A DNA stretch of 64,000 bases, taken from the IMG/VR virus record IMGVR_UViG_3300005253_000487, positions 1 through 64,000 of that record, one strand, 5' to 3'. The notes below the pieces were generated by a model. That model ran no database searches and was not told the DNA's origin. It saw nothing but the letters and a program-made list of their open reading frames with translations. This DNA comes from a virus. Each line of letters begins with the position of its first letter. Within the stretch, counting starts at the first letter, position 1. This document shows positions 1,960-18,097 of this stretch, piece by piece. Position numbers and translations under genes: made by a program.

Positions 1960-2214
1960 TTAGGCACGGTGGTCTTGTTGCTCCTCGAAGACACTTTCCT
2001 CCTTGAGAAGGCGCATCATGCGATTCATTGAATTGGTAGCCTCCTCGGCACGGATACCGCTTGCTTTGACTGCACGTTGTATGGCAAGGATGCCCTCTTC
2101 TAACTCTGCATCCGTGAACTCTGTTGTGTCGACACCCCAGAACGACAGCTCGCGGCGAACGCGAGCGAGGGCCTCGCGCCGTTGTCGTTTCTGCCACCAT
2201 GCTCTAAGTCCCAT
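1960..2214 (-). CDS. Hypothetical protein
   Basis: 84 aa ORF overlapping neighbours in operon fashion. Confidence 0.5.
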   Translation of the reverse strand: MGLRAWWQKRQRREALARVRRELSFWGVDTTEFTDAELEEGILAIQRAVKASGIRAEEATNSMNRMMRLLKEESVFEEQQDHRA

Positions 2215-2464
2215 CAGGTCTCGGGGCGGGAATGATCGTTACATTGTGCACTGAGTCTGCGAGCTTCTCGCCTTCCACTTCGATGAGTTTCTTGAGATAC
2301 CAATCCGCTTTCAAAAGATCGCCGACCGGTTTGCCCTTGTATCGGTAGCGGGCGAGGTACTTGACAACTTGTCCTGCAAGGAAATTAAAGTCTTGATCCA
2401 GGATGTAGTCGATGGTTTCGATCGACCCCTGGTTGTAATGGGAGGGGTGGTTTACGTTGCTCAT
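2204..2464 (-). CDS. DUF3310 family phage protein (putative nucleotide kinase)
   Basis: VNHPSHY...IETIDYI...GQVVKYLARYRYKG...DLLKADWYLKKLIE signature. Confidence 0.85.
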   Translation of the reverse strand: MSNVNHPSHYNQGSIETIDYILDQDFNFLAGQVVKYLARYRYKGKPVGDLLKADWYLKKLIEVEGEKLADSVHNVTIIPAPRPDGT

Positions 2465-2727
2465 ACGTTCGGTTCCGCCTCGTAACTTTTTAGGTCACTC
2501 CATTCCATCTCATGTCCACAATCTCTACACTCCACAGTGTCCCCGGGTTGGATGTCAAGGCACTTGTCAGGGTCATCAACAAACCCCAAGTGTTCACCGA
2601 TCGCTTTGTCCGTTCGCTTGCCCTTCCGTGCATTGAGGCGAAAGATTGCCTCAACGAGAATGTCGGTCGTCAACGTTAGGTCGGTTGACATGCACTCGTC
2701 ACAGCGAAACTCTTTCATGGCGCCCAT
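2461..2727 (-). CDS. Zinc-ribbon hypothetical protein
   Basis: CDEC and CRDC pairs. Confidence 0.55.
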   Translation of the reverse strand: MGAMKEFRCDECMSTDLTLTTDILVEAIFRLNARKGKRTDKAIGEHLGFVDDPDKCLDIQPGDTVECRDCGHEMEWSDLKSYEAEPNV

Positions 2728-2728
2728 G

Positions 2729-3520
2729 TTAATCCTTTACCACTTGTGCGTCTAGTTGTGCTGCTGTGTGTTGCATATAGTCTTCGCTGCCCGCAAACAC
2801 GCCCCGCAACGAAGCATCCTTGCGTCTACGTTCCAAGGTGTTGGGGTGGAACATGCCGGCAAGGGAAGAGAAGCCTGAGGTGTGGAGGTGACGAATGTAG
2901 GCCTCAGGTGATGGTACTTGCAACATGGATGTGATCACTGTGTCTGCACGGAACCTCTCGCTCTGGTCCACGCTACGACCAGTGATGTGGCGCCACAGAC
3001 GCATGGACTCTGCAACATGGTGTAGACTCTTAGCATCAGGGGGCAACGCGTCCAGTGCCTTGGATAGCCCTACAATCTTCATTCCTCCAGCGTGTCCCTT
3101 GTCCCTGCGGTGTCGACGTGGGGTAAGGAGAAGTACGCGAATTTGGTTGTACGCGTCCACAGCGTCTGGGCTGGTGAGGGGACCCAATGCGGATAGTCGC
3201 TTCGCTAACTTGCGGCGAACAGGTTCCGCTACGACAAGGTGGAAGCGGGCGAGGTGGGTGTTCACTTCCCGTAACCAATCCACTGTCTGTGGATCCAATG
3301 TGGGCTTCTTCACGCGAGGCAGTTCCGCTCCCGGGCCGAGAGCACGCGCACATGACTTGCAGATGCGGGCGCCTTCGGGCAGTGTGTGGACTATATTCTT
3401 GGCGGGGGTAGCGCGTAGGGTGATAACGCTGACGGTGCTGCACATTGTCTGTCGACCGCCTTGGGGCCACGCGTGCCACGGACGTCGCACAGCAAAGCGG
3501 ACCCAAGTAACTCTTGTCAC
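2729..3520 (-). CDS. Hypothetical protein (basic, N-terminal H/C zinc-like motif)
   Basis: 263 aa ORF, WH...C...CKSC. Confidence 0.55.
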   Translation of the reverse strand: MTRVTWVRFAVRRPWHAWPQGGRQTMCSTVSVITLRATPAKNIVHTLPEGARICKSCARALGPGAELPRVKKPTLDPQTVDWLREVNTHLARFHLVVAEPVRRKLAKRLSALGPLTSPDAVDAYNQIRVLLLTPRRHRRDKGHAGGMKIVGLSKALDALPPDAKSLHHVAESMRLWRHITGRSVDQSERFRADTVITSMLQVPSPEAYIRHLHTSGFSSLAGMFHPNTLERRRKDASLRGVFAGSEDYMQHTAAQLDAQVVKD

Positions 3521-3903
3521 GTAATCTCCACAAGGACACGGTAGACCTCAGTGTCCAAATCGTCTGCCCGCGCTGGAGCGTCTGTGCGGATGTATACCCG
3601 TTCACCAATACTGTTTAAGTCTCGGTGATCCCAATAGTTTGGTCCTACACTGCTAAATAAATCGCCAGGGCGAAGGTCTCGTTTTACACAAGGTTCCAAA
3701 CGAATGTTCATATCTTCTCCGCTTTGTGCAGACTTATGAGTAGTGACACCTGAGACTTTACGCAGGCTTGGAGTGTGGACAAAGGAAGATTGACGTCTGG
3801 GCTAGCACCCCCTTTTACCAATTCCCAACCGCTGTTCCCGCCTGTATTTCGGATGTGTCCTTGTAGGGGCTCCATCCATTGAGGCATGGTCCATTTTATG
3901 TGT

Positions 3904-5451
3904 TTAGCCATTGGTAACCTCCACTGTAAAACCCTCATCATGGTAGAGTTGAATGCGTTTGCGTGCTGCCGTATGGAGGTACTTAGCGGCGCGGGCTAAG
4001 AGACGCTCGTGGCTCTTAAATGTGACCCGGTCCACAATGTCTACGAGCCTGAGGAACTCCTTGCCATCTGTGCGTCGCAGCCCACGGCCGATGCGTTGCA
4101 ATGTCTGCTTCGTGGAACCCTCCCCGCTAACGAATAGAAGGTCAGTGGTATGTCCAAGTCGATTGGTTCCGCGGTCTAGGATCTTAGTAACCACAAGGAT
4201 GTGAATGTCTCCACGTCGGAACTGCCGCAGAACGTCTCGGCGTTGCGCCGGAGATGTGGAGCCATCCAAGAACACTGCACCTTTAATGGCCCGTGTAACA
4301 GAGTGTCCATGTTCCACACGGTTGACGATGACAGCGGTAGGTGTGTTGGGGCGGATGAGAGAGGCGATGAAATCATGACGCGCATAGTTGTTCATGACGG
4401 CCTCTTCGTAAACCCACCGTCGGCGTGCGGGTCCACTAAGCTCCCACCACTTCTTCAAGCCTCCGGTCAGCATGGGTGTGACATCGTATTGGTGTAACGT
4501 GACAGTGGGTGTAGCACTTACGTTGCGCTCTATGAGATCAATGTTCTTGGCTGCGAGTAGGATGGGCCCCATTAAGACGTCGAGTCTGAGATCTTCATAG
4601 GAGTCGTTTGGGAAGGTGCCGGAGAAGCCCAGGCGCCAGCGTGATCCTTTAGTATTGCTAAGGATGCGACGCCACGTTGCGACGTCCGCCCTGTCTGCTT
4701 CGTCTAGCAGTACCATTCCATGCCTGCCGACCCACTTGCGCCATACCTTTGCAGTGTCCCCCGTTTTTGCTGCCAATCGTTTCGACAGTGTTGGGACCAT
4801 GGCAATGGAGACAAGGTCTTGGGGCGGACGTTTAATACCTTGCGACACGCTTGCGGGTGAGAGTGAGGTCCACTTGGTAACCTCGTCCATGAGTGCATCG
4901 AATACGGAGATGGTGTCGCATAGGATGAGGACGGGGACGCCGAGTTGTGCGGCGAAGTCTGCCAGCAGTGCAATCACCGCACCCTTGCCCGCGTTGGTGG
5001 CAAGGGCGAAGCGCCCCCATTCATATTCCACGGCCGCTTTGAAAGCGACACGTTGGTACGTCCCTTGTGGTTCCGGTAGCTGTGTTAAGGTGGGGTGGGT
5101 GGGCGTGCAGGTAGGTGGTTGATTGTCTATTGTAATTGTTAACGCCTTACTCATGCGTTCGAGAAGCCCTCGAGACCCCCGGAACTCCCACACCCCTGGG
5201 CGTAACTGACGGCAGTACTTCCCCGGTGTGTAGGTGCCGTCCCAGAATACTGCCGCTGCTTTCTTACGTGCGGACGCCTCAGTCATCCCTCCCTGTATTA
5301 ACCTTCCTACCATGCTAGAGAACTTGCGGAAGCGGGGTGTGAACTGTGCATCAGGTACGGCATGGCGTTGACTCTCACGCCAATCGTACAGTGCCTTCGG
5401 CCCCGTAACAACCATTTCCGCGTGGTTGATGAGGTGGGCAACGGCAGTCAC
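3904..5451 (-). CDS. Superfamily 2 DNA helicase (UvsW-like)
   Basis: ATNAGKG (motif I), LLDEAD (II), GFSGT (III), QRIGRGLR (VI). Confidence 0.9.
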   Translation of the reverse strand: MTAVAHLINHAEMVVTGPKALYDWRESQRHAVPDAQFTPRFRKFSSMVGRLIQGGMTEASARKKAAAVFWDGTYTPGKYCRQLRPGVWEFRGSRGLLERMSKALTITIDNQPPTCTPTHPTLTQLPEPQGTYQRVAFKAAVEYEWGRFALATNAGKGAVIALLADFAAQLGVPVLILCDTISVFDALMDEVTKWTSLSPASVSQGIKRPPQDLVSIAMVPTLSKRLAAKTGDTAKVWRKWVGRHGMVLLDEADRADVATWRRILSNTKGSRWRLGFSGTFPNDSYEDLRLDVLMGPILLAAKNIDLIERNVSATPTVTLHQYDVTPMLTGGLKKWWELSGPARRRWVYEEAVMNNYARHDFIASLIRPNTPTAVIVNRVEHGHSVTRAIKGAVFLDGSTSPAQRRDVLRQFRRGDIHILVVTKILDRGTNRLGHTTDLLFVSGEGSTKQTLQRIGRGLRRTDGKEFLRLVDIVDRVTFKSHERLLARAAKYLHTAARKRIQLYHDEGFTVEVTNG

Positions 5452-6418: not shown

Positions 6419-7057
6419 CTACGCCTTGCGGTAGCGTAGCACGTTAATGGGTAGTGTTGCTGGGTCCAACATACGTTCCGCAAGGTAGTCTGCTGTGAAT
6501 TGCCGAATGCGGTGTAGCGTACGATGCCATTCCGTGCGCGTTAACTTGAATGCGGTTCGGAGTTGCACATGGGATGGGCGGATGTGTTTGCTGCCCCGTT
6601 GCTTCAACCTTGCCTTGCGTCGTGCAGTGATGCGAAGGAGTTTGCAATAGCGTTCGTCCTGGGGCTGGAGCAAGTTCTCTGCCACGCGTCGTGCAAGCAT
6701 CCCTTCCATCACCTCGAGGGCGTTGAGGTAAGCGTCGAGGTCGAGCGCGTTGTTCCACGCCCCTTGTGGATCCTGTAGCATCTTGTCCGGGGGGGCTGCG
6801 GTGAGGGGGAAGTCCTCGCGGTGACGGGCGCCGGAGTAGCGCCAGCCCCCGCTCCAGTAAATCCACATGCATCGTTGCAACAGTGTCCGCGCAAGTGCAA
6901 ATGATTTCTTGTGGACAGAGCTGCGGTGGTAAGAGAACAGAGCTTCCTGTACTAGGTCGTCTACGTCAGCTGGTTGCTGTGTGATGCGTCGGGCGAGTGA
7001 GTGGGCGAGGACGTTCAATTGTTGCGGTGTTGGAGACGGTGATTTGATTGTGGGCAC
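6419..7057 (-). CDS. Sigma-70/ECF-like phage transcription factor
   Basis: Region-2-like LARRI...DVDDLVQEALFSY and a basic helical C-terminus. Confidence 0.6.
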   Translation of the reverse strand: MPTIKSPSPTPQQLNVLAHSLARRITQQPADVDDLVQEALFSYHRSSVHKKSFALARTLLQRCMWIYWSGGWRYSGARHREDFPLTAAPPDKMLQDPQGAWNNALDLDAYLNALEVMEGMLARRVAENLLQPQDERYCKLLRITARRKARLKQRGSKHIRPSHVQLRTAFKLTRTEWHRTLHRIRQFTADYLAERMLDPATLPINVLRYRKA

Positions 7058-7068
7058 GATGGAACTCC

Positions 7069-7503
7069 TTAAGGGTTAAAGATTATAACTTGCTTACTTA
7101 ATTGACGAGCGTATCTAACTGTTGCCCATGTTCCAGAACGCACCACCTCCCCCTCTTGTTTTGGTGCCGCTAACATGACGTCACAGGCGGCAGCCATGTC
7201 GCGGTTGCGTTGGAGGTATGGTCTGGGAGGCATGATACGTTGGGCTGGTACTGGACAGTAGGCGCGCTTTCTAGCATCACTAGGCGGGTGTAGTATGACG
7301 AGGTGCTCTAAGCCTGTCTCCTGTACTATGGTAAACATCTGTTCGTCTGCCATGATGCAATCGCCCAAGTGGATTGAGCGCAGTGCTGCGCGATACTCAA
7401 TTAGGTAGTTGGTGAGATCGAAACATTGACGAGTGGTTAGGTCCCGGTGTTGGGTGCCAGTGAAACTTATGTCTAATTTGTTGTGCATAATTTTGCTGTC
7501 CAT
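7069..7503 (-). CDS. SLOG superfamily (YspA/DprA-like) nucleotide-binding protein
   Basis: ISFTGT, HLGDCIMAD, RNRDM...D.MLAAP, SGTWATVRYAR. Confidence 0.8.
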   Translation of the reverse strand: MDSKIMHNKLDISFTGTQHRDLTTRQCFDLTNYLIEYRAALRSIHLGDCIMADEQMFTIVQETGLEHLVILHPPSDARKRAYCPVPAQRIMPPRPYLQRNRDMAAACDVMLAAPKQEGEVVRSGTWATVRYARQLSKQVIIFNP

Positions 7504-7508
7504 GCGAC

Positions 7509-7535
7509 AGTATATGCAGACTTACAAAGGCGCAA
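7509..7535 (-). promoter_or_regulatory. Candidate sigma70 promoter, likely leaderless transcript
   Basis: TTGCGC-N15-TATACT ending 5 nt before ATG 7503; spacer is short. Confidence 0.3.
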
Positions 7536-7578
7536 GGGTTTTACTCTAACCCAAAAATTCGTATCGTATAAGTAGCGC

Positions 7579-7600
7579 ATAGGAATGCTATAGGAATGCT
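7579..7600 (+). repeat. 11-bp direct repeat ATAGGAATGCT x2, candidate RHH operator
   Basis: Exact tandem copies in the divergent intergenic region just upstream of the RHH gene. Confidence 0.55.
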
Positions 7601-7623
7601 TGCTAAAAGGGGGAACAACAACT

Positions 7624-7797
7624 ATGGTGATGCCGAAGCTGCCACCTGGAGAACGGAGAAGCGAACCTGTGTTCGTGCTTCTTCGTCCACGTGAGTTGCA
7701 ACAGGTGGATAAGATTGCCGAGAAAGAAGGGAAGAGTCGCGCCCAGGTACTGCGCGAGAGCTTCCTCGATAGGCATACGCAGGTCGATGCGCCTTGA
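7624..7797 (+). CDS. Ribbon-helix-helix (CopG-like) regulator
   Basis: VFVLLRPRELQQVDKIAEKEGKSRAQVLRE pattern; AAGGGG RBS. Confidence 0.75.
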   Translation: MVMPKLPPGERRSEPVFVLLRPRELQQVDKIAEKEGKSRAQVLRESFLDRHTQVDAP

Positions 7798-8009
7798 GGC
7801 TCGTGCCCTTGCGTGTCGTAATTCTAATTGTGGTTGCGGCTGTGGCTCTGACCGTAGGTGGGATGCTGTTGATGCTATGGGGTGGCTACCAATTAGGATT
7901 GTCCGCACAACTTATGAGTAGGCAAGAGGAGTTGACTGAGGAGGCAATCACACTCGTCAATAGTGTTGATGAGGCTGTGCGTTGCTTCCTGGGAGATTGT
8001 CCGCCGTGA
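7794..8009 (+). CDS. Small membrane protein
   Basis: Long hydrophobic N-terminal segment. Confidence 0.55.
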   Translation: MRLVPLRVVILIVVAAVALTVGGMLLMLWGGYQLGLSAQLMSRQEELTEEAITLVNSVDEAVRCFLGDCPP

Positions 8010-8101
8010 GGTCATCAGCACACGAACCTTGCTAAAATGTCCGTGGACGCGTAGACTAAGACTGTTGCAGTATGGGGAAGCAGTTTCAATCGAAGGAGGG
8101 C

Positions 8102-8440
8102 ATGATGCGAAGAATGCTTGGCAGAGTTGTCATGCTTGTGGCCGTACTGATGCTCAGTGCGGGGCTTCCACGAGCAGGTCCCGACACTGATGTAGGGATC
8201 GAACAGTACATTACCCAGGCCCAGGACGCGCAATACACCTTCGGTGCGATCGTTCCTCCCGCCGTTGACCTACGTGTCACAGAACAATTCGTGGCGGGTG
8301 CGTCGTTGGCAGAATCAAGATCGCCTCTGGTGATAACGCGGACGCAACGCTACGTGGATACTGTGCACACAAACACCGCCACGGCGACGTCCCGCTTTAT
8401 ACACCGGACCGATAACGGCTGGCGAACTCTGCGGACTTAG
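8102..8440 (+). CDS. Secreted/membrane hypothetical protein
   Basis: AAGGAGG RBS; signal-peptide-like MMRRMLGRVVMLVAVLMLSAG. Confidence 0.6.
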   Translation: MMRRMLGRVVMLVAVLMLSAGLPRAGPDTDVGIEQYITQAQDAQYTFGAIVPPAVDLRVTEQFVAGASLAESRSPLVITRTQRYVDTVHTNTATATSRFIHRTDNGWRTLRT

Positions 8441-8474
8441 CATAGGCGCGTGAGTTAGGAACATCCTGCTCACT

Positions 8475-8514
8475 AAAAAAGGCCACCAACACATTGCGCG
8501 TTGGTGGCCTTTTT
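8475..8514. terminator. Bidirectional intrinsic terminator
   Basis: AAAAAA-GGCCACCAAC-loop-GTTGGTGGCC-TTTTT between convergent gene blocks. Confidence 0.85.
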
Positions 8515-8669
8515 GTAAGTTCGAGGGGGCCTGCTCCCCGCCGTCTAACTACGAGACGGGAAGCAAGGAGCAACCCTCCCCCTCTGGTGCCCGGAGTCCA
8601 CTTTCTAATGGAACGCCCGTTGACGCAGACCGCCTGGGTGGGCCATCCCATCCAGACACCATTGTCTAC

Positions 8670-9947
8670 CTACTCCTCTGCGGAAACAACTTCCCCGAAC
8701 GGCACTCTATCTTGTGCGTGGTATGTGGGCGTGACCCACAGTACCGGCACGTCCGGTGCCTGTTCCGCCGGAGGGAATGTACCATACAGGTCCGTAAGGT
8801 ACAGCACGCAGGCAGGCGGTTCGTCTAGCCCCTCCAGCGCTGCGAACACTGGACGGAAATCTGTGCCTCCTCCACCTGCTGCCTCCAGGACAACCTGCTC
8901 GCCCTGTTCGAACGTCTCTTCCTTCTGGAGTGCCGCATCGCAATACATGATGTGGATACGGCGGGGCCTCATTTCTTCTGCCACTGCTTGCACCTCCGCA
9001 CCAAACAACGCGAGGAGCGTAGCGTCTATCGATCCGCTTGTGTCAATACCAATTACAATTGGACCAAGCTCCCGACTGTAAAGGGACGGGAGATACAAAC
9101 CCAACGGCATGTATCTGCGGTTGGGCTGCTCCCAGGAGTAATCACTGTTCGTGATCTCCTGTACGAAGCGCCGCAGCACGGAGCGCCAATCAACGCGTGC
9201 TCTTGCCGCTTGCTCCGCGAGGCGCGCGAGTCCGCCGGGCAGCTTGCCCTGTCCCTCGGCAAGTGCGGCGGCCTGTTGCACCGCTTCCTTCCAATCTTCC
9301 TCCGTGGGTGTTTCCGTGTCGTCGTCTCCGTTTGCTGCCGGAGCGTCTCGAACCTCACCGCCGAAGGGATCTTCTTGTTCTTCCTGCTCTTGCTCATCCT
9401 GATCATCTTGCTGCTCGTCCTGGTCTTCGTTTCCATCCCCGTTACCCTTGCCACTGCCACCGGGTTGCGACTCGTCGTCGCTGTCTCCACTACCGTCTTC
9501 GTCCCCTTCGCCCTCGCCTTCCTTGGGCTGTGGTTTCTGTAAACGATTGTAGATCCATTCGGCGGACTTACCAACGTGGCTGGGTTCGAGTTCGTACAAC
9601 ACATTGTCCGGAAGCTGGAACGACGCGTCACGTAACACTGGATTCAGTGCACGGTCAGCAGCTTCGTTCCATTGCCCCGCCTCGCGCCCAGCACGCCGCC
9701 AAGGATGCCCAAGGACACAGTGTCCAACTTCATGGGCAGTCAATGCGACGCGGCGTGAGTGCGAAGGGAGACTGTTGATGTACGTGGGATTGAAGCCCAG
9801 CGTCTTGCCATCCACCCATGCGGTCTTGCACGATGGATCTTCTCTCAGCTTCAGCTTCAATGTCAACGTACCCCAGAACGGTTCTCCAAGGACGAGCGCC
9901 GTACGTGCGGCAACCATCCTCTTCATTGCTTCTGACTGTTGCTTCAT
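8670..9947 (-). CDS. DUF2201-type metallopeptidase / VWA domain protein
   Basis: HEVGH zinc motif, acidic linker, DTSGS MIDAS, GGGGTDF, YLTDLYG; start reassigned to ATG 9947 behind GGAGG. Confidence 0.9.
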   Translation of the reverse strand: MKQQSEAMKRMVAARTALVLGEPFWGTLTLKLKLREDPSCKTAWVDGKTLGFNPTYINSLPSHSRRVALTAHEVGHCVLGHPWRRAGREAGQWNEAADRALNPVLRDASFQLPDNVLYELEPSHVGKSAEWIYNRLQKPQPKEGEGEGDEDGSGDSDDESQPGGSGKGNGDGNEDQDEQQDDQDEQEQEEQEDPFGGEVRDAPAANGDDDTETPTEEDWKEAVQQAAALAEGQGKLPGGLARLAEQAARARVDWRSVLRRFVQEITNSDYSWEQPNRRYMPLGLYLPSLYSRELGPIVIGIDTSGSIDATLLALFGAEVQAVAEEMRPRRIHIMYCDAALQKEETFEQGEQVVLEAAGGGGTDFRPVFAALEGLDEPPACVLYLTDLYGTFPPAEQAPDVPVLWVTPTYHAQDRVPFGEVVSAEE

Positions 9948-9966
9948 CTTTGCCTCCTCGTAAAGT

Positions 9967-10040
9967 GTGGGTTGCCTCATCAGTGCATGGGTACCCAACC
10001 CATGCAGACCGGACACCAAGCGGTGCCCGGTTTCGGCTAG
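9967..10040 (-). ncRNA. Type II hammerhead ribozyme 1
   Basis: GCC-GAAA-stem III-GUC^ (cut 10007/10006)-UGCAUGGG/CCCAUGCA stem I-CUGAUGA-GGC; loop UGGGU can pair with 3' ACCCA. Confidence 0.93.
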
Positions 10041-10312
10041 CCGCGTAGTTCTTGCAGCTCTTGGATAGTTGGTATGTCTTCATCCCAACAACCAATGATG
10101 TTTTCGTCAGTGAAGCCTGCTGCCATCATGCTGACGAATAGACGCTTACGATTCTCTGGTGTTGGATCCTTCATATACCTTTCTAGCTCTACCATCATTG
10201 CGTCATCTGGTGCGGCGATGGCATTACCTAACGCCACTCCGAATGCGTAAGGAGTACGCTTGTGTGGGTGAGCAATCTGCTCCCGTACAATCTCCTCCGG
10301 CGTGTTTGCCAT
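10037..10312 (-). CDS. Hypothetical protein
   Basis: 91 aa, starts 1 nt after upstream stop; its UAG lies in the 5' end of ribozyme 1. Confidence 0.7.
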   Translation of the reverse strand: MANTPEEIVREQIAHPHKRTPYAFGVALGNAIAAPDDAMMVELERYMKDPTPENRKRLFVSMMAAGFTDENIIGCWDEDIPTIQELQELRG

Positions 10313-10313
10313 G

Positions 10314-11216
10314 TCAAGCTCCCTTCTTGGCAGGCTTCTTCTTCGGCGGAGTGTAGACGCCCTTCATGCTTGCCAAGATGGCGTCGGCCTTGCGTGCGGT
10401 GTCCTTGCGGAACTTCTCATCATCACGCAACGACTCCACGTCCAGGGTCGACAGGTCCAGTAGCACCTGCTTCCGTGCCTTCTCCAGCTTCGCGTCCCCG
10501 GTGAGGTTAAGGCGGCCAATGATCTCCGCCATCTCACCGACGCGTGCTATCATTGTCGGCCGCAGATACTTCCCATCACCCAACTTGGTCCGCAGGTCTG
10601 TCACTGTGTCGCCCAACCGCTGCCACACATCGCCCATGGCGTCTGCGACTGCCTGCTTGACTCTGTCTTCCACTCCACGTGTCATGGCCTTTAACTGCTC
10701 CTTGGGTAGAGTGACTCGAAAGTCATCCCCGGAAGGAACAGGACCGTACTGGATAGTGAAGTGGAACTTAGTCCGGACCTGGCTTGTGGTGGGGTAGTCT
10801 GAACGTTTATACATCTGCCCCAACCGTTCCTCTGCTGTCCGTACGAGCGTTGGATAGTCCCTGAGGAACTTCTCCAGCGCCGTCTCATACCTGGTCTGCA
10901 CTGTCCGCATCGCTTCGACATACTCGAAGTAATTGGCAGTAGGTAAGAGACGCCAGCCCGCGTCCTCCCAGGGCAAGGTATGTTTGTAGTGCGTTACCCT
11001 TGCGACCTGAGTGGCGTTGACGAGCATCGAGTGTGACGGAGCGTCGCCCCCGAACAGTCGTTTGTGGTAGCGTCCTGCACGATCGTTCTTGGCCATCTCC
11101 GTATTCACTTTGTCGGTGACCTCTGCGTCGTGCTTCCGGGCGCTCCACAAGCCGATCCACACGTTGACGAGCATTGCTCGCCCCAAGATAGATGTGGACT
11201 TCTTTGTTGTGGTCAT
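10314..11216 (-). CDS. DUF3150-like phage protein (commonly adjacent to AAA/VWA pairs)
   Basis: 300 aa, MLVNVWIGLWSARKHD...TLPW...RLLP...YP pattern; gene context. Confidence 0.6.
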   Translation of the reverse strand: MTTTKKSTSILGRAMLVNVWIGLWSARKHDAEVTDKVNTEMAKNDRAGRYHKRLFGGDAPSHSMLVNATQVARVTHYKHTLPWEDAGWRLLPTANYFEYVEAMRTVQTRYETALEKFLRDYPTLVRTAEERLGQMYKRSDYPTTSQVRTKFHFTIQYGPVPSGDDFRVTLPKEQLKAMTRGVEDRVKQAVADAMGDVWQRLGDTVTDLRTKLGDGKYLRPTMIARVGEMAEIIGRLNLTGDAKLEKARKQVLLDLSTLDVESLRDDEKFRKDTARKADAILASMKGVYTPPKKKPAKKGA

Positions 11217-11240
11217 GCTTGCCTCCTTGTGTAGTTCAGT

Positions 11241-11313
11241 GTGGGTTGCCTCATCAGTACGTGGGTTCCCATTCCACGTAGACCGCCCACGACGTGTGGG
11301 CGGTTTCGGCTAC
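11241..11313 (-). ncRNA. Type II hammerhead ribozyme 2
   Basis: GCC GAAA CCGCCCAC..GUGGGCG GUC^ UACGUGG..CCACGUA CUGAUGA GGC; cut 11281/11280. Confidence 0.93.
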
Positions 11314-11486
11314 CTCGCAATCATCTCCGCTTCCATCTTCTTCATGGCGTCGCTAAGTTGTTCCCACCAAGAACGTATTCCAAGGTGAGGGTCGCCAGTT
11401 AACTGGACGATGGTTGATGCGATAGCATGAATGCGTTTGACTTGGGCTTCCTGGTCCTGTAAAGACCATTGCTCTCGCCCAGCCAT
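11310..11486 (-). CDS. 58-aa hypothetical protein (absent from ORF track)
   Basis: TAATG overlap with AAA stop; MAGREQWSLQDQ...EMIAR then UAG within ribozyme 2. Confidence 0.65.
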   Translation of the reverse strand: MAGREQWSLQDQEAQVKRIHAIASTIVQLTGDPHLGIRSWWEQLSDAMKKMEAEMIAR

Positions 11487-12514
11487 TACGCCGTACCGGA
11501 GATGAGCTGTCCAAGCTCACCGGACATCAATCTGACAAACTCCGGGGTGTTAACCAACTCCGGGTTGTTGCGTTCCGCATCCTTGATCAACAGTGCAGCG
11601 AATTCGCCGTGTCCTTCCTCGACGAGCCTCTCGGCGTAACGCGCCACGCGGCCAAAGTTCTGCTCGTTGGCCTTGATGGCGAGCCCTGTCACTGTAGCAT
11701 ACAACGCTGACAGGTCTGTCGGGATGTCCTGTCCATCCGGATTGATTAAGATGGCGTCGATGCTGGGTAGCTGACGGAACATCCGTAAGAAGGCGCGCAA
11801 CTCTACCGAGGCGCCTTCACCTACGGCGCCCGCTAGTGCTTCACCTTCCAGTGTGTCAGGTAGCCCAAGCTCCAGGACGTGTCCAGCGTTGCTCCAGGTG
11901 CGCGGTAGCGGGCAGTTCGTCATGTCCGCTGTCGGTGTGAACTGGCACAGCAACTCTGGGCGGAACCGAAGGAATGCAATCAGCTCCGGCGGGATGTGCG
12001 TTTGCGTGAACGCCCATTGACACCAGTCGTCCAAGTCCTCAACCAACTCTACGATGGATATGAACCTACTCTTCACGGGCTCCAGTATCCCACTGACGTT
12101 CGCACGGTCCGTGCGCCGGTTCGTTGCTGCAATGAACGACACTACATCGGGCAGCCTGTGCCCGTTGATTTCACGCGCCAAGATTAACTGCATCTTGGCC
12201 GCCTGTACGGCGCCCGGTGCTTGACCAAGATCGTCCAGGAACCATACCGTGTCTACTGTTGCGGCAAGTGCTTCAGCGAACTGCCCGAACGGTAGGAACT
12301 GAGCGGTCTTCTTGTCCGCCGACGGCCAAGGAAGCCCCTTGGAGTCCGTCGGATCTTCCACCGCGGGGTGCGACAGTATCATCCGCGCACCTGCGGTGTC
12401 ACATGCCTGTGCCACTACGTCACTCTTACCTACGCCAGGCTTCCCAGTGATTAGCACTGGGTGACGCTTTGGAATGGCGAGTGCGAGGAACATGGCCAGT
12501 TGTGATGGTTTCAT
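11486..12514 (-). CDS. MoxR/CbbQ-like AAA+ ATPase
   Basis: GKPGVGKS Walker A, WFLDDL Walker B, AATNR, SRF, PRTW; start at ATG 12514 behind GGAGG. Confidence 0.9.
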   Translation of the reverse strand: MKPSQLAMFLALAIPKRHPVLITGKPGVGKSDVVAQACDTAGARMILSHPAVEDPTDSKGLPWPSADKKTAQFLPFGQFAEALAATVDTVWFLDDLGQAPGAVQAAKMQLILAREINGHRLPDVVSFIAATNRRTDRANVSGILEPVKSRFISIVELVEDLDDWCQWAFTQTHIPPELIAFLRFRPELLCQFTPTADMTNCPLPRTWSNAGHVLELGLPDTLEGEALAGAVGEGASVELRAFLRMFRQLPSIDAILINPDGQDIPTDLSALYATVTGLAIKANEQNFGRVARYAERLVEEGHGEFAALLIKDAERNNPELVNTPEFVRLMSGELGQLISGTA

Positions 12515-12533
12515 CTTTGCCTCCTTGTAGTGT

Positions 12534-12606
12534 GTGGGTTGCCTCATCAGTACGTGGATTCCCATTCCACGCAGACCGGATGCACAGTGCATCCGGTTTC
12601 GGCTAC
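12534..12606 (-). ncRNA. Type II hammerhead ribozyme 3
   Basis: Intact core; stem III CCGGAUGCAC/GUGCAUCCGG; cut 12574/12573. Confidence 0.93.
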
Positions 12607-13500
12607 TTACTTTGGTGGCCACATGTACGTGAACTCCGGGCGTCCATACCACGTGACGTAGTGTCCGAGGGCGTCCTCGATGTTCTTGCTTCGTGGTTTG
12701 GACATGCCGTCGTTGTTACGGAACCACCTCCAGAATTCAATCTTCCAATCCCACCATATCGAATCCTGTGGCGTGCACAGGTCGTCCAGGGTGACCTCAT
12801 ACTCATGCCCGTCTCGCCGGCACCGCATGAACTTCTTGCGCTCCGCGGGTGGGAGGCTAAGGAACATGAGCGACTGTTGCATACCGAAGAACAACTGGCC
12901 GCGCATTACATCCTCGTTCCAACACCTGGGTATCTCTTCCACAATGTCCTCGGACAACGTTAGCAGTGGGCAGACGGTGTGGAAGAATGTATCCTCACTA
13001 TCGCTTTGCCAGATGTCGTAGAACGCCATGTCAAACGTACCGGGTGTTCTGTCCTTGAGGTATTCGAATAGGTCCGCACAGACTACAGTGATCTTCCCAT
13101 CGTCATCAGGCAGATGTTGGTTGACTAGCTTGATGACCTCTGATGAGATCTCTACGACGGTGACCTGCTCCACGTCTGGGTTGGCTGCTAGGTTTGCCGC
13201 AGCATAGCCTAGCCCCAGTCCACCAACCAACACCGTGCCGTAATAGCCCTCGAGAATGTTGTTGGCTTGCGCTTGTTCCACGGGCTCGTCTGTCATCCAC
13301 ACCCCTTGGTCCTCTTGGACTAGTTGGTGGAAGCGCACCCGCTTGTCAAATTTGACAGCCTTACTCTGCTGGCCAAAGAGTGCCGTGCGTGCGGTGGCGG
13401 TGTGGAATTTGTGTCCCACCTTGAAGTGAAGATGCTTGATGCTGTAAGCACCTTCCACCCCTTCAGGGATGTCGAGGACGGGCCAATACTTCTGTTTCAT
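12607..13500 (-). CDS. Class I SAM-dependent methyltransferase (spermidine-synthase-like fold)
   Basis: VLVGGLGLG, VTVVEIS, ADLFEY, FDMAFYDIW. Confidence 0.8.
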   Translation of the reverse strand: MKQKYWPVLDIPEGVEGAYSIKHLHFKVGHKFHTATARTALFGQQSKAVKFDKRVRFHQLVQEDQGVWMTDEPVEQAQANNILEGYYGTVLVGGLGLGYAAANLAANPDVEQVTVVEISSEVIKLVNQHLPDDDGKITVVCADLFEYLKDRTPGTFDMAFYDIWQSDSEDTFFHTVCPLLTLSEDIVEEIPRCWNEDVMRGQLFFGMQQSLMFLSLPPAERKKFMRCRRDGHEYEVTLDDLCTPQDSIWWDWKIEFWRWFRNNDGMSKPRSKNIEDALGHYVTWYGRPEFTYMWPPK

Positions 13501-13520
13501 TGTTGCCTCCCTGTAGTGTG

Positions 13521-13593
13521 TTGGGTTGCCTCATCAGTACGTGGATACCCATTCCACGTAAACCGCCCATGGAGTGTGGACGGTTTCGGCTGC
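13521..13593 (-). ncRNA. Type II hammerhead ribozyme 4 (GUU site)
   Basis: Intact core; cleavage triplet GUU fits NUH; cut 13561/13560. Confidence 0.9.
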
Positions 13594-14436
13594 CTACTTC
13601 TTCCGGCGCGTGCTTTTCTTCTTCCGCCGCTTGTCCGCAGTGGGCGTGGCCTTCCTACGTGTCACCTTCTTCTCTTGGCGTGGTGCTGCGGCCGTGTGTT
13701 CTGTGACGTGCCCATCGCTATTGTTCTGGGCTACGACGCGTGCCCGCTCACCCTGTGCTTGCACGCGTGCTTCTTTGCGTGCTGCCCGTTCCTTAGCACT
13801 TGTCTCCCGTCGGCGCCAGCGTGAGCGCCCCAGGTCTGGGAAACGTACTGTGTGGTCTACGATCAAGTCCGCCCGCTCGTTGGCTTGAGCACGCACATAC
13901 TCCACACCTTCTGGATCAATTACAACGTCGTGTGACTGACCATGTACGTCCATCGTTGCGCCACTCCAACCCTCAGTGCAGCGGCTGGATGTATTGACGG
14001 GAACGTCTGCGTCACTAACCTGCGGAATGCCAGCCGCGCGCTGTGGACCCAACCTCTGTTCCAGTAACGCGAAGTAGGCTTCCTTACTACCTAGCACCAC
14101 GAAGAGTGCCTCACGGAGTGGACGGTTGCTGCTGAACCCTAAGCGGTCGCGCTCAGCACCCATGGTCGTCTCTCCCGCTTGTAGACGGGGGAGGACTTCG
14201 CGTGCTTCCTGCAAGAGCGTCTCATCAAGTTGCTTACCGCCTTTGGGCTTCGCAGCTTTCTTCTTGTCTGCCTTCGCCGTGTCATTGACCCGCTTGTCCG
14301 CGTCCGCCTTCGCTGTGTCATTGACCCGCTTATCCGCCTTAGCTTGCGCGGACTTAGCGGGCGCCTTCTTCTTCCGTTTAGGGAAGGCGTTCTTGGCTGT
14401 AGCTTTCTTAGTACTCTTTCTCGGTCTTGCCATCAT
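13594..14436 (-). CDS. Lys/Arg/Ala-rich putative nucleic-acid-binding protein
   Basis: Histone-H1-like termini; duplicated ADKRVNDTAKAD. Confidence 0.7.
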   Translation of the reverse strand: MMARPRKSTKKATAKNAFPKRKKKAPAKSAQAKADKRVNDTAKADADKRVNDTAKADKKKAAKPKGGKQLDETLLQEAREVLPRLQAGETTMGAERDRLGFSSNRPLREALFVVLGSKEAYFALLEQRLGPQRAAGIPQVSDADVPVNTSSRCTEGWSGATMDVHGQSHDVVIDPEGVEYVRAQANERADLIVDHTVRFPDLGRSRWRRRETSAKERAARKEARVQAQGERARVVAQNNSDGHVTEHTAAAPRQEKKVTRRKATPTADKRRKKKSTRRKK

Positions 14437-14451
14437 TGCCTCCTTGTGTTT

Positions 14452-14523
14452 GTGGGTTGCCTCATCAGTACGTGGATACCCATTCCACGCAGACCATCCA
14501 CTCCGGTGGATGGTTTCAGCTAC
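14452..14523 (-). ncRNA. Type II hammerhead ribozyme 5
   Basis: Intact core; stem III CCAUCCAC/GUGGAUGG; G-U at base of stem II; cut 14492/14491. Confidence 0.9.
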
Positions 14524-14525
14524 TA

Positions 14526-14843
14526 CTACCTAGGTGGTGCGTCGACCGTCCGTCGGTACGTCCCTTCGCACAGGTAGCTTGAGTGCGAGATGCGCTGGAG
14601 CCTCAGCCGCAGTGCCTCAACGTCCTTGCACGCCAGCAACAGTTCTAGATCCTTTGCCGTCATGCATTGTGCAAGGACGCGAGCACCAATGCGGACATCC
14701 AGTAAGTCTACGTCTTCCGCCCGTGCCAACTTGCCGTCCGTGAAGCAATGGATGTTCCCGGTGCTGTGTTCCAGGATGCGTCCAATCATCTTCACGTACC
14801 TGTTCTTGACGATGACGACATCGCCTTCTTCGAAGACGCGCAT
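14526..14843 (-). CDS. Hypothetical protein
   Basis: TGATG overlap start MRVFEEGDVVIV; ends TAG TAG TAG running into ribozyme 5. Confidence 0.65.
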   Translation of the reverse strand: MRVFEEGDVVIVKNRYVKMIGRILEHSTGNIHCFTDGKLARAEDVDLLDVRIGARVLAQCMTAKDLELLLACKDVEALRLRLQRISHSSYLCEGTYRRTVDAPPR

Positions 14844-15064
14844 CACCCACCACCCTTCGGTCCTTCGGTCTTGCAAGCGCGTCCGCAGAAGATGTGATTG
14901 TCGTGCGCGAGGATTGCCGTACCCGCTGGCAGATTCTTGCCACACGCTGCACACTTGCGATCGACTTGCGCCCGGAACATTGCCTGTCTACGCTCGACTT
15001 CTTCGATGTTCGCTAGGAGCCCGCGTGCTCGCCCGGACTCAGTACCGCTTGTTCGTTTGTTCAT
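14843..15064 (-). CDS. Small zinc-finger-like protein
   Basis: GGAGG RBS; CAACG...FCGRAC. Confidence 0.65.
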   Translation of the reverse strand: MNKRTSGTESGRARGLLANIEEVERRQAMFRAQVDRKCAACGKNLPAGTAILAHDNHIFCGRACKTEGPKGGG

Positions 15065-15080
15065 GTGTGCCTCCTTGTGC

Positions 15081-15158
15081 GTGGGTTGCCTCATCAGTAC
15101 ATGGATTCCCATTCCATGCAGACCGGACAGCGTAACACGGCTGCCCGGTTTCGGCTAC
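15081..15158 (-). ncRNA. Type II hammerhead ribozyme 6
   Basis: Intact core; stem III CCGGGCAGC/GCUGUCCGG; cut 15121/15120. Confidence 0.93.
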
Positions 15159-15697
15159 TACGGTCCGCCTATCTGCGGTCCGCTTATCTGGTGGACGTTC
15201 TGCTCGTGCGCCTGTCGCATGAGTTCTTGCAGCACTTCAATCGTTTCGCTTGCGTGCGTCTCCACCTCGCCCCAGTCGACGTCGACGACCAGTATGTCGA
15301 TGAGGCCCGCAACGCGTTGCTCCGCGTCGTTGACTGTGAGGATGGCCTTGTCCACTTCGTCGGACCCATCGTCCCATTCTGAGAGGATGCTGAAGAGTGT
15401 GTAAAGCTCATCTGGTAGCTCGTCACGCGCCGCAGTGTCCAACTTGTCTGCAAACTTGGCTACCTTGCGGAGCTTGTTGAAGTTTACCGTGCCGTTAGCG
15501 ATGCACGCCTTTTGCACACGGTCCAAAATCTTCTGGTAGGCGTCGCAACTCATCCTCACCGTTGTCGTGGTACAGCCCCCGCTGTCGTCGCACGCTTGTA
15601 TCATGCGCCTGTGTCGCACTATCAGTGCCTGCATCGCACGAATCGTTGCTGCCCGTAGCTTCCTGTTCCGCGCCGGGATCTTCGATGGACGTTTCAT
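15158..15697 (-). CDS. Hypothetical helical protein
   Basis: 179 aa with GGAGG RBS. Confidence 0.7.
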   Translation of the reverse strand: MKRPSKIPARNRKLRAATIRAMQALIVRHRRMIQACDDSGGCTTTTVRMSCDAYQKILDRVQKACIANGTVNFNKLRKVAKFADKLDTAARDELPDELYTLFSILSEWDDGSDEVDKAILTVNDAEQRVAGLIDILVVDVDWGEVETHASETIEVLQELMRQAHEQNVHQISGPQIGGP

Positions 15698-15720
15698 TCT
15701 TGCCTCCCTGTAGTGGTGTT

Positions 15721-15793
15721 GTGGGTTACCTCGTCAGTACGTGGGTACCCAACCCATGCAGACCGGATGCACTGTGCACCCGGTTTCGGCTAC
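15721..15793 (-). ncRNA. Type II hammerhead ribozyme 7
   Basis: Core CUGACGA (variation only at the free N7 position); cut 15761/15760. Confidence 0.92.
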
Positions 15794-16416
15794 TGCCGGT
15801 CCAACGGGTACTGGAACTTCTCCAACACTACTGCCCATGCTGCTGCTGTCTGCTGCTCGATGATGTTGTGCACTGGGCTAGTGGAGTACGAAGGGGAACG
15901 CGTGGCGCGTACAACTTGCTCCAACGCTTCGACGCGGATCTTTTCATTCATCTCTTCCGCTGTGTCCCCATCCTTCCTGAACTGTGCGATGTACTGTAGC
16001 ACACCTCGGCACACGGTACCACTTGCGGCGCGCCTTATCACGTCCATGCTCGAGCCGAACCCGTAAGTCATGTCCGCTTGTGGCGCGTCCACTTGCTCTA
16101 GCAAGCGTGCCGTCCACTTCCGTATCTCCTTCTCACAGTAGCCAACTTCACGCTCCAAGTCTTCCACTCTGTGTACCCACCGCTCTGCTACTGTGGCAAT
16201 GTACTTGAAGTGGAGTTGCGTGCGCGTCTTGTTGTCGAACCCAATGAGATACTGCCCTTCCCCCAGGATCTTCTCTTCCCTGGTGAAGGCTTCCAACAAC
16301 GCCTTCTGTGTTCCATACTGCCACGGCGGATGTAAGTCCACGCGTGCCATGTTGGGTGTGCCGTCCGGCATCGCTTCGGCCTGGACGTCATGCTGCTGGT
16401 GTAATGTGTAACGCAT
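15790..16416 (-). CDS. Hypothetical protein, first gene of the ribozyme operon
   Basis: ATG 16416 behind GGGAGG; 208 aa. Confidence 0.7.
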   Translation of the reverse strand: MRYTLHQQHDVQAEAMPDGTPNMARVDLHPPWQYGTQKALLEAFTREEKILGEGQYLIGFDNKTRTQLHFKYIATVAERWVHRVEDLEREVGYCEKEIRKWTARLLEQVDAPQADMTYGFGSSMDVIRRAASGTVCRGVLQYIAQFRKDGDTAEEMNEKIRVEALEQVVRATRSPSYSTSPVHNIIEQQTAAAWAVVLEKFQYPLDRQ

Positions 16417-16437
16417 TCTTGCCTCCCTGTAGTGTGT

Positions 16438-16530
16438 GTGGGTTGCCTCATCAGTACGTGGGTACCCAACCCACGCAGACGTAACACGCATCCGCTAGGC
16501 AAGCGGTTGAGCGCGTGCTACGTTTCAGCT
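16438..16530 (-). ncRNA. Type II hammerhead ribozyme 8 (leader copy, extended stem III)
   Basis: GCU GAAA CGUAGCACGCG...UGCGUGUUAC GUC^ UGCGUGGG/CCCACGUA CUGAUGA GGC; cut 16478/16477. Confidence 0.92.
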
Positions 16531-17048
16531 TTGAAACTTTACAAGGAGGAGGCATACTAGATGCGCCGCCGTATCCCGTCTGTCTGCAATCTTGTGCCCG
16601 TCGTCCACGTCTCAATACGTACGAGCTGTGAACGCCGTGCACGCCGCAAGCACTTAGCGGAGGGGGTCGGTTGCTGTCGCTGGCTGAACGCCCTTAACGC
16701 GCATCTAGTTTCTGTTCGACTTCCGCGTCCCATTGTTGTGCGTGCTGCACACCCACCTTCCGTCCAGCCACTTAGCACGTCCTCGGGCTCCCGTTCCCTT
16801 AAGCATTCCGCTGGCGCTCTAACTTCCCCGTCCATCCACGCGCTACAACTTCTGTGTACCCCCGCGCTGACTGTGCTGTCTGCGTCGTCTATGGATCCGG
16901 GGTCGCAGTTTCTAACTGCATCGGCAATGCTGCCATCCCCGTAGTGCGCGTCCACGTAGCGCACCCTCCAACATCCACCCCTAACTACATGCTACTACAC
17001 CTACACTTACAATCTACGACACGCAACCCAAGGACGCAAGTGTTTTGC

Positions 17049-17201
17049 AAGTGCTTATATAGCAACCACTTACAGCGTCGCTCCCGTTGGATCGGTCGAA
17101 AAAGGGGAGCTTTTAAGCGATGCTATAAGTGCTTATATAGCAACCACTTAGCTATGCTTTACTCAGGGAAGGCACGTAAGTCCTTTGTTTCGTCCCATTT
17201 A
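17049..17201. repeat. Three (T)AAGT-N15-AYTTA pseudo-palindromes; two are identical 24-mers
   Basis: AAGTGCTTATATAGCAACCACTTA at 17049-17072 and 17127-17150; TAAGT-N15-ATTTA at 17177-17201. Confidence 0.75.
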
Positions 17202-17296
17202 CCCGATCGCTTGCGGTGCTGCACTGTAGCGTCAAGCGGGGTGACGCTTTTGACACGCTTGCGTTGCACTTGTATGACGCCGTATTGTGCGCGGAC

Positions 17297-18097
17297 ATGC
17301 CGAAGCAGACAGTAAAGAAGAAACGGCGCTCGAGTAAAGGGCGCAAGCATCATCCACACACTTGTGGTCCAAAGTGTAGACACAAGTGTGGTGACGTTGG
17401 TGGGCGCACGCAGAGTGGTAGGCCTTGTAGGCACCTCGGTGGTAACGGTGTGGAGGGCAAGGTGAAGGGCGTGTGGGCGCTGTGCTGGGATCACGATCCG
17501 GATAACACTGCACCCGCACCAACACAAGAGCAGGCATTCGAAGGTGGGCTGACGGGGAAGGAAGCTCTCTTCGTGTTCTACTATCCGGGGAGCGCCAATT
17601 GCAATGCGACGGAGGCGGCTAAGCTGGCGGGCTACACCGGCAGCCGCGCCACATTGCAAGCGACGGGGGCGAAGCTGATGACGAAGCCCAAGATTAAGGC
17701 AGCCATCCTCAAACGCTTCGATGAACTCTCGGCACCAGGCGAGGAGATCATTGCACGCATGACGGCGGATGCGCGGGGGAGTATGCTGCCGCTAGTGAAG
17801 TTTGACGAGAAGGGACGCCCCCAGGTTCACCTCACAGCGGAACTCCTCTTAGAGTTTGGCACGCTTATCAAAACAATAGACTGCGACCCGGAGACAGGGT
17901 ACATCCGCAAGCTGACGCTTAACGATGGACAGGCAGCACGAAGGGACTTGGCTAAGATACGCAAGCTCATGAGTGATGCACCGGAGGTCAACATCCTCAA
18001 TCTCCAGGACCTCTCGGACGATGAGCTGGCGAAGAGGTTAGCAACGCTCGCCGCACGCCTGCGCCCTAATCCACAGCATGAGTTGAATGGGGCATGA
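17297..18097 (+). CDS. terS: Terminase small subunit
   Basis: FVFYY...NATEAAKLAGY...GAKLMTKPKIKAAI HTH; directly upstream of terL. Confidence 0.85.
   Translation: MPKQTVKKKRRSSKGRKHHPHTCGPKCRHKCGDVGGRTQSGRPCRHLGGNGVEGKVKGVWALCWDHDPDNTAPAPTQEQAFEGGLTGKEALFVFYYPGSANCNATEAAKLAGYTGSRATLQATGAKLMTKPKIKAAILKRFDELSAPGEEIIARMTADARGSMLPLVKFDEKGRPQVHLTAELLLEFGTLIKTIDCDPETGYIRKLTLNDGQAARRDLAKIRKLMSDAPEVNILNLQDLSDDELAKRLATLAARLRPNPQHELNGA

Follow-up and report, generated by a model that had tools for sequence, protein, structure and literature searches.

Arrays in which multiple hammerhead ribozymes flank single genes or short gene blocks were described in prophages by Perreault et al. (2011), who proposed that long transcripts are processed into gene-length mRNAs (PMC3088659). 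Three of these arrays cleaved in vitro and one in Escherichia coli, and a pseudoknot was required for fast cleavage (PMC3088659). In its passages on these ribozymes, a 2019 review by Weinberg and colleagues treats 'different stabilities or translation efficiencies' as a proposal still in need of work, and the role of bacterial and phage hammerheads is still described there as open (PMC6765202). Cleavage in vivo has been reported for type II hammerheads near phage-like genes of Desulfovibrio vulgaris (PMC8782182). Here we analysed an array of eight predicted type II hammerheads (HH1 to HH8) in the leftward operon of an uncultivated virus, IMG/VR record IMGVR_UViG_3300005253_000487. The record is 88 kb long and about 83% complete, and the window that we examined is its first 64 kb (64,000 nucleotides). 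We consider it likely that one leftward RNA is cut by the eight hammerheads into eight mRNAs of one or two genes, and that the stop-ribozyme-RBS (ribosome-binding site) cassettes are portable connectors.

The locus shares with the arrays of Perreault et al. the type II class, a pseudoknot between loop I and the 3' tail, and the placement between genes or gene blocks of a phage operon. It differs in its regularity, with eight copies in 6.6 kb whose 3' halves and RBSs are near-identical. The eight copies bound units of one or two genes on the coding strand of a virus contig and thus form a clustered array. In the passages of both papers that bear on it, the idea of gene-length mRNAs with different stability or translation from a polycistronic phage RNA is already published (PMC3088659; PMC6765202), and the tight packing of stop, ribozyme and RBS is not spelled out. 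A first-pass annotation, made from the sequence of the window alone, had read the junctions as a standardised, RiboJ-like expression insulator, an interpretation that as a whole is partly supported by our analysis.

RiboJ was reportedly built by Lou et al. in 2012 from the sTRSV hammerhead and a 3' hairpin. By this reported composition it is a synthetic type III ribozyme with an extra hairpin that exposes the Shine-Dalgarno (SD) sequence, whereas the copies in the window are type II and have a pseudoknot and an unstructured C/A-rich linker. RiboJ is promoter-proximal, while seven of the eight copies here are intercistronic; only HH1 has the same position at the head of an operon. In both cases a hammerhead upstream of the RBS would give a defined 5' end with a 5'-OH and a hairpin, and putative insulation of the RiboJ kind is a reasonable functional analogy. 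RiboJ is a self-cleaving ribozyme insulator that raises transcript and protein levels in E. coli (PMC6206723). The glmS ribozyme also cleaves itself in a bacterial mRNA leader and leaves a 5'-OH on the coding fragment, and this product is degraded by RNase J1, for which the 5'-OH is the entry site (Collins et al. 2007, reviewed in PMC3997798). The PeSLs (early promoter plus stem-loop) of T4-type phages resemble the array at another level, being repeated intergenic expression cassettes that flank accessory genes and carry signs of cassette-bounded gene gain and loss (PMC2839356, PMC4122927). A PeSL is an early promoter with a stem-loop terminator and acts on DNA and transcription, while the unit in the window is a ribozyme with an RBS and would act on RNA. 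No promoter and terminator of the PeSL type were found in the window cassettes by a sigma-70-like scan, although the host promoter type may differ.

Eight Hammerhead_II matches on the minus strand

Searching the window with Rfam cmscan gave eight matches to Hammerhead_II (RF02276); they span 16530 to 9966, and every one is on the minus strand. Six copies scored 41.7-51.4 bits, where the gathering cut-off is 37 bits. No other ribozyme class was found in the window by cmscan at E <= 1, and the 88-kb record contains no further hammerhead copies. The cassettes, in the order of transcription, are as follows.

16414..16530, minus strand: HH1 cassette, 32.8 bits; hammerhead 16530-16437 with a long stem III and G10.1-U11.1; C17 at 16478; GGAGGCA 16426-16420; ATG 16416
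15695..15791, minus strand: HH2 cassette, 33.3 bits; hammerhead 15791-15720; CUGACGA, a mismatched A-C in stem I, outer stem II pair G-U; C17 at 15761; GGAGGCA 15707-15701; ATG 15697
15062..15156, minus strand: HH3 cassette, 41.8 bits; hammerhead 15156-15080; C17 at 15121; GGAGGCA 15074-15068; ATG 15064; TAG-TAG upstream
14431..14521, minus strand: HH4 cassette, 44.8 bits; hammerhead 14521-14451 with G10.1-U11.1; C17 at 14492; GGAGGCA 14443-14437; ATGATG (14436/14433); three in-frame TAG upstream
13498..13591, minus strand: HH5 cassette, 48.9 bits; hammerhead 13591-13520; GUU as cleavage triplet; U17 at 13561; GGAGGCA 13510-13504; ATG 13500
12512..12604, minus strand: HH6 cassette, 41.7 bits; hammerhead 12604-12533; C17 at 12574; GGAGGCA 12524-12518; ATG 12514
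11214..11311, minus strand: HH7 cassette, 51.4 bits; hammerhead 11311-11240; C17 at 11281; GGAGGCA 11226-11220; ATG 11216
9945..10038, minus strand: HH8 cassette, 45.5 bits; hammerhead 10038-9966; C17 at 10007; GGAGGCA 9957-9951; ATG 9947

In an alignment of the eight copies (A1), the catalytic core (CUGAnGA, GAAA, A15.1-U16.1 and H17) is complete in every copy. Seven copies have CUGAUGA, and the CUGACGA of HH2 is a change at the free position N7; HH5 has U as H17, and the other seven have C. The predicted cleavage sites are 16478/16477, 15761/15760, 15121/15120, 14492/14491, 13561/13560, 12574/12573, 11281/11280 and 10007/10006. The topology is the type II permutation, in which stems I and III each end in a loop and stem II is open. 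In the alignment, 97.8% of the cells in the four helices were paired, compared with 28-40% when the partners were slid. Six of the eight stem III pairs are changed on both sides in a compensatory manner, and none of 500 shuffles reached the observed covariation score. Hairpins of stem III have predicted energies of -10.9 to -23.5 kcal/mol, and those of stem I of -7.9 to -14.3 kcal/mol. With GCC/GGC, stem II has just 3 bp. The G-U and GUU variants pointed out in the first-pass annotation are both present, the former in stem II of the copies at 16530, 14521 and 15791 and the latter in the copy at 13591. Moreover, pairing is possible in all eight copies between UGGG of loop I and CCCA of the tail that follows stem II on its 3' side, with a fifth U-A pair in five of them; these pairs are invariant across the copies, so they show pairing potential and not covariation.

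Each of the eight copies sits in an intergenic gap on the coding strand, and few other genes of the window are preceded by a full GGAGG at proper spacing. Because of this placement, the covariation of six of the eight stem III pairs and the rarity of GGAGG elsewhere, a chance origin of the array is excluded.

Stop codon, ribozyme and ribosome-binding site

The ribozymes split the operon into eight units, with genes numbered in the order of transcription: g1; g2; g3-g4; g5; g6; g7-g8; g9-g10; and g11 onward. HH1 heads the operon, with no open reading frame (ORF) upstream. At the other seven copies the upstream stop codon abuts or overlaps the ribozyme, as had been noted before. The distance from the end of the stop codon to the first base of stem II is -1 nt for HH2, HH7 and HH8, +2 for HH3, +5 for HH4, and +3 for HH5 and HH6. 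At g1/HH2, g8/HH7 and g10/HH8, stem II begins with the final G of TAG, and TAG-CC-GAAAC leads into these copies (15791, 11311 and 10038; copies 7, 2 and 1 of the first-pass annotation, where TAG-CC-GAAA was correctly read). Its double UAG (copy 6) and triple UAG (copy 5) are also seen, as TAG-TAG at 15156 and as three in-frame TAG at 14521. TAA-G-TAG-CC is found before HH6 (12604) and TAG-GCA-GCC before HH5 (13591).

On the 3' side, all eight ribozymes are followed by GGCAACCCA..., a C/A-rich linker, GGAGGCA and an ATG, so that in every case a ribozyme separates the upstream context from the RBS. This layout is the one reported earlier, but the CA-rich stretch had been taken as spacer throughout, and its first part belongs to the ribozyme because ACCCA/CCCA pairs with loop I. 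No hairpin between the pseudoknot tail and the SD was found by folding the eight copies, only the C/A-rich linker. The spacer between GGAGGCA and ATG is 3 nt in seven copies; in HH4 these 3 nt are themselves ATG, which leaves the second ATG (14433) at the standard spacing. After cleavage, the 5' leaders would be 55-64 nt long with a uniform GGAGGCA-N3-ATG, in agreement with the near-identical 5' untranslated regions of about 55-65 nt proposed before, and the tails left on the upstream RNAs would be 29-37 nt. The three junctions without a ribozyme are built as first described, with overlapping stop and start codons or 1 nt between them: TGATG (14845-14841), TAATG (11488-11484) and TGA-C-ATG (10316-10310).

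To place these junctions among other phage hammerheads, IMG/VR phage contigs were fetched by two DNA patterns, and hammerheads were located by a covariance model built from A1 and by a pairing-checked regular expression. The set contained 145 de-duplicated hammerheads from 91 other loci, and ORFs of at least 60 codons were considered. The search pattern was biased towards stem II = NCC/GGN, and since the regular expression missed HH2 with its mismatch, the survey undercounts imperfect copies. A stop codon lay -1 to +5 nt from stem II in 101 of 145 hammerheads (70%), compared with 2.6% of random same-strand positions. A start codon preceded by an SD lay within 45 nt of stem II in 110 of 143 (77%), and 79 hammerheads had both features. 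Arrays of three to nine copies were found in 11 loci, with eight or nine copies each in L017, L044 and L062. Four arrays were read (L017 at 7402-11682 on the minus strand, L044, L062 at 2151-5080 on the plus strand, and L059), each with six to nine type II hammerheads within 3-5 kb and with its own uniform post-ribozyme RBS: ACAAGGAGGA in L017, CAGGAGAGGCUGCC in L044 and UUUGGAGAAC in L059. In L044 and L062 the SD follows stem II after about 10-15 nt, and there is no ACCCA-type tail.

Given the 70% of stops at -1 to +5 nt and the locus-specific uniform RBSs of the arrays read, the stop-ribozyme-RBS junction is the normal build of the phage type II hammerhead class. The standardisation read from the junctions in the first-pass annotation is therefore not special to this locus. 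Stop distances cover -1 to +5 nt in this locus as well as in the survey, which rules out a fixed stop-to-ribozyme geometry and argues for tight (maximal) packing.

In metagenome run X4, contigs with a summed depth of up to about 878 match HH4 and HH6 with deletions of 3-5 nt in the linker, at 14447-14450 and 12526-12532, between the pseudoknot tail and the SD. The cassette family is thus abundant in this sediment sample and its linker length is variable. Most of the hammerhead-to-hammerhead joints in the same run are flanked by a mere 20-43 nt; these were rejected as rearrangements of this phage, and we read them as other genomes with the same cassette.

Gene content and possible exchange of cassettes

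The leftward arm begins at about 16.5 kb, and the rightward arm encodes the small and large terminase, portal, protease/scaffold, capsid and tape measure proteins. The ribozyme-bearing genes are best explained as a leftward early or accessory operon of an uncultivated marine-sediment phage. They are as follows.

15790..16416, minus strand: g1, 208 amino acids, no family found
15158..15697, minus strand: g2, 179 amino acids, no family found
14526..15064, minus strand: g3 (73 amino acids, CxxC-type) and g4 (about 105 amino acids), coupled by TGATG; one ribozyme-bounded unit
13594..14436, minus strand: g5, about 279 amino acids, Lys/Ala-rich ends, no family found
12607..13500, minus strand: g6, 297 amino acids, S-adenosylmethionine-dependent methyltransferase-like (phrog_15480, E 3.9e-17)
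11310..12514, minus strand: g7 (AAA ATPase, 342 amino acids, phrog_1297, E 1e-66) and g8 (58 amino acids), coupled by TAATG; one unit
10037..11216, minus strand: g9 (DUF3150, 300 amino acids, Pfam PF11348) and g10 (91 amino acids), joined by TGA-C-ATG; one unit
8670..9947, minus strand: g11, 425 amino acids, DUF2201_N metallopeptidase-like and VWA-like domains (Pfam E 2e-52 and 2e-26; phrog_1314); last cassette-served gene

In Pfam, g6 matches Spermine_synth at its cut-off, and Methyltransf_25 and Methyltransf_11 below theirs. From the spacing of the other seven cassettes, translation of g5 probably starts at the second ATG (14433).

Five relatives of the ATPase-DUF3150-DUF2201 triad (L020 and L141-L144) were compared with the window. 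In one viral contig (56% ATPase identity; gaps of 3 and 7 nt) and in three bacterial genomes (one from Acidobacteriota, two from Alphaproteobacteria), the three genes lie side by side with no hammerhead. In the fifth relative, Edaphobacter (L144), ATPase and DUF3150 are contiguous without a hammerhead, and the locus ends there. In the window, the triad (8670-12514, minus strand) is interrupted by g8 with HH7 and by g10 with HH8, both of which these distant relatives lack.

The copies themselves also differ unevenly. Between HH2 and HH6 there are two letter differences in stem III and seven in the 3' half; for HH1 and HH2 the respective counts are 14 and three. Over the eight copies, similarity of the stem III half and of the stem I half was uncorrelated (Mantel r = -0.2). 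The two halves may thus be mosaic, in a pattern as from recombination near the cleavage site; with just eight copies, this signal is only suggestive. Moreover, a low-depth contig of 598 nt (X2-12) joins a g4-like gene (12% diverged) to an identical g6 through a single hybrid ribozyme with HH4-like and HH5 parts, without g5 and one ribozyme. In the metagenome of a second study, depth peaked on the bins of five cassettes (HH4-HH8), and half of the matching pieces continued into unlike sequence. Because the relatives lack cassettes and the halves appear mosaic, the cassettes are probably portable connectors that were added to the operon and probably recombine within it. The cassette-free relatives and the mosaic halves are what is new here, and they hint at portability and recombination.

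These observations bear on the strongest rival explanation, a possible one to which we give limited credence, in which the cassettes serve above all as recombination linkers, or as mobile regulatory cassettes of the PeSL kind. Repeats of about 100 nt on either side of accessory genes would let phages gain, lose and swap genes through homologous recombination, and cleavage and the built-in stop and RBS would merely make insertions harmless to the operon. Besides the triad relatives, the mosaic halves, the g4-like-to-g6 joint and the depth peaks, it would account for the exact runs of up to 37 nt common to the copies and for the arrays read in other phages, each with its own homogenised cassette, and PeSLs are a precedent (PMC2839356, PMC4122927). 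However, this evidence comes from no more than eight copies and a single contig that may be chimeric, recombination would have only short exact runs (20-37 nt) to act on, and no closely related genome pair was at hand for mapping indel borders. The compensatory changes in stem III and the intact core also show selection on catalysis itself. This explanation is compatible with the processing of one leftward RNA into eight mRNAs, and the difference is the main target of selection.

A more specific version may be put forward tentatively. The unit under selection could be a portable connector of stop codon, hammerhead, pseudoknot tail, SD and start codon that spreads and recombines among the phages of a habitat, with stem III staying with the upstream gene, and stem I and the RBS with the downstream gene. 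If so, any gene could be inserted into the operon without polar effects, and the connector would correspond, at the RNA level, to the PeSL cassettes of T4-type phages and amount to a standard synthetic-biology part of natural origin. Should cassettes mediate gene shuffling, RNA processing would be linked to phage genome plasticity.

Proposed processing of the leftward transcript

In the processing that we favour, the leftward operon would be transcribed as a single long RNA. No terminator-like sites were found on the minus strand inside the array, promoter-like sites there were in no excess over shuffled sequence, and sigma-70-like promoters and terminators showed no excess in 8000-17500 and were absent from the cassettes. 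The eight hammerheads would cleave during transcription, after GUC or GUU, at the eight predicted sites, each filling the entire gap from stop to RBS. As the topology is type II, the upstream mRNA would keep its stop codon and a tail of 29-37 nt, with the GC-rich stem III hairpin and a cyclic phosphate at its end. The mRNA downstream would open with a 5'-OH buried in the stem I hairpin, which the pseudoknot ties to ACCCA, and continue with the unstructured C/A-rich linker and GGAGGCA-N3-ATG. Since only the 3 bp of stem II join the products, they would be released readily, and since about 30 nt separate the stop from the new 3' end, ribosomes would terminate normally on the upstream RNA. The uniform leader with the same GGAGGCA-N3-ATG suggests that each unit is translated from an identical strong and independent initiation site, while gene pairs that need coupling would retain their overlapping stop and start codons. 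What the analysis shows is the motifs with their positions, conservation and covariation, and the class-wide nature of the layout; cleavage in vivo, the single transcript and the effects on decay and translation are what we infer.

Several findings weigh against this reading. HH1 and HH2, at 32.8 and 33.3 bits, fall below the Rfam cut-off of 37, with E-values of 0.006-0.009 in the window-wide search, though their cassette context is the same as that of the other six. Stem I of HH2 contains the A-C mismatch, and the 10.1-11.1 pair is G-U in HH1 and HH4. A simple sigma-70 scan upstream of HH1 found no leftward promoter, although the pattern may not be that of the host. The sequence 9900-16600 was found in four DNA contigs from marine sediment metagenomes of two studies and in no RNA run. 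The only pointers to a host are the ATPase relatives in Acidobacteriota and Alphaproteobacteria, with at most 52% identity; terminase relatives were sought in GTDB species genomes and none was found. A blastn search with the array hit nothing among 50,697 phage records. As for the recombining cassettes, HH4 and HH5 share an exact run of 37 nt, so contig X2-12 may be a chimera of the k=31 assembly.

Two further points concern what cleavage would achieve. The end anatomy given in the first-pass annotation stands, with a 5'-OH in the stem I hairpin and a stem III hairpin ending in a 2',3'-cyclic phosphate. Its conclusion that such RNAs are poor substrates of RNase J does not hold in general, since a 5'-OH can be an entry site for RNase J1 (PMC3997798), and the claim is host-dependent at best. 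In glmS the 5'-OH triggers RNase J1 decay, the opposite of the stabilisation proposed; the 5' nucleotide in the window is paired in stem I, which may block this route, and any protection from decay would come from this fully paired 5' end. The second point concerns the RBS. The RiboJ-like position of the ribozyme before the RBS holds in all eight copies, but in RNAfold partition-function folding the SD of HH2-HH8 had an unpaired probability of about 0.35-0.65 both before and after cleavage. On these predictions, cleavage-dependent unmasking of the SD is rejected for HH2-HH8, and insulation by this means is unsupported there.

HH1 differs in this respect. The leftward and rightward operons diverge within about 30 nt (16531-16560), so their promoters and leaders must overlap. 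The first ATG of the rightward operon is at 16561 and its RBS, GGAGGAGGCA, at 16545-16554, and the antisense of this RBS is an anti-SD for every leftward GGAGGCA site.

16545..16554, minus strand: anti-SD, antisense of the rightward GGAGGAGGCA; the leftward leader reads UGCCUCCUCC

In folding, this leader is predicted to pair with the SD of g1, which had an unpaired probability of 0.03-0.19 with the leader and 0.40 without it. HH1 could therefore remove an anti-SD leader, which holds only if transcription starts at or above about 16555. By these predictions, HH1 is the sole copy for which the RiboJ analogy would be literal.

The departures from the consensus, namely GUU in HH5, G10.1-U11.1 in HH1 and HH4, and the A-C mismatch with the outer G-U in HH2, could slow cleavage. 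On this basis the array might be a graded or conditional timing device, an explanation that we regard as unlikely. Its variant copies, four of the eight, would cleave slowly or conditionally (depending on Mg2+, temperature or ribosome traffic) and set the ratios of coupled to uncoupled expression. Regulation of slower phage variants is suggested in the passages of Perreault et al. that deal with them (PMC3088659). With the stop at -1 to +5 nt, a terminating ribosome, judged by its footprint size, would also cover stem II, GAAA and the start of stem III, so cleavage might be coupled to translation. However, the departures are conservative (wobble pairs and an allowed H17), no ligand-binding or switch element is evident, and the stop distance, variable here and across the class, favours packing over tuned geometry.

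It is very improbable that the excised gene RNAs are circularised or spliced, with the two ends of a unit, its 3' end bearing the next ribozyme's 5' half and its 5' end the previous ribozyme's 3' half, rebuilding a hammerhead that ligates, or being joined by an RtcB-type ligase: the cleavage end chemistry suits RtcB, and hybrid ribozymes could form because the cores and stem II (GCC/GGC) are near-identical in all copies, but a 3-bp stem II would hold the ends weakly. In the passages on such arrays, Perreault et al. found no circular or spliced products (PMC3088659).

Since the arrangement and its proposed role have been known since 2011, the finding is incremental, and its value is a tidy experimental system together with class-wide junction statistics rather than a new principle. 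The array is a clean test bed of eight near-isogenic natural cassettes with defined variants (GUU, G-U at 10.1-11.1 and the stem I mismatch), and the three translationally coupled junctions alongside are internal controls. The class-wide figures (70% for the stop, 77% for SD and start) make the 'ribozyme as intercistronic connector' quantitative and testable, and the cassettes might supply compact natural parts for operon design.

Two observations concern the annotation of neighbouring genes. The PHROG label 'HNH endonuclease' for the DUF2201 gene is without Pfam support. Downstream of the array, an ORF of 212 amino acids (6419-7057, minus strand) matches sigma-70 region 2 weakly (E 1e-4, under the Pfam cut-off), and it may encode a phage sigma-like factor.

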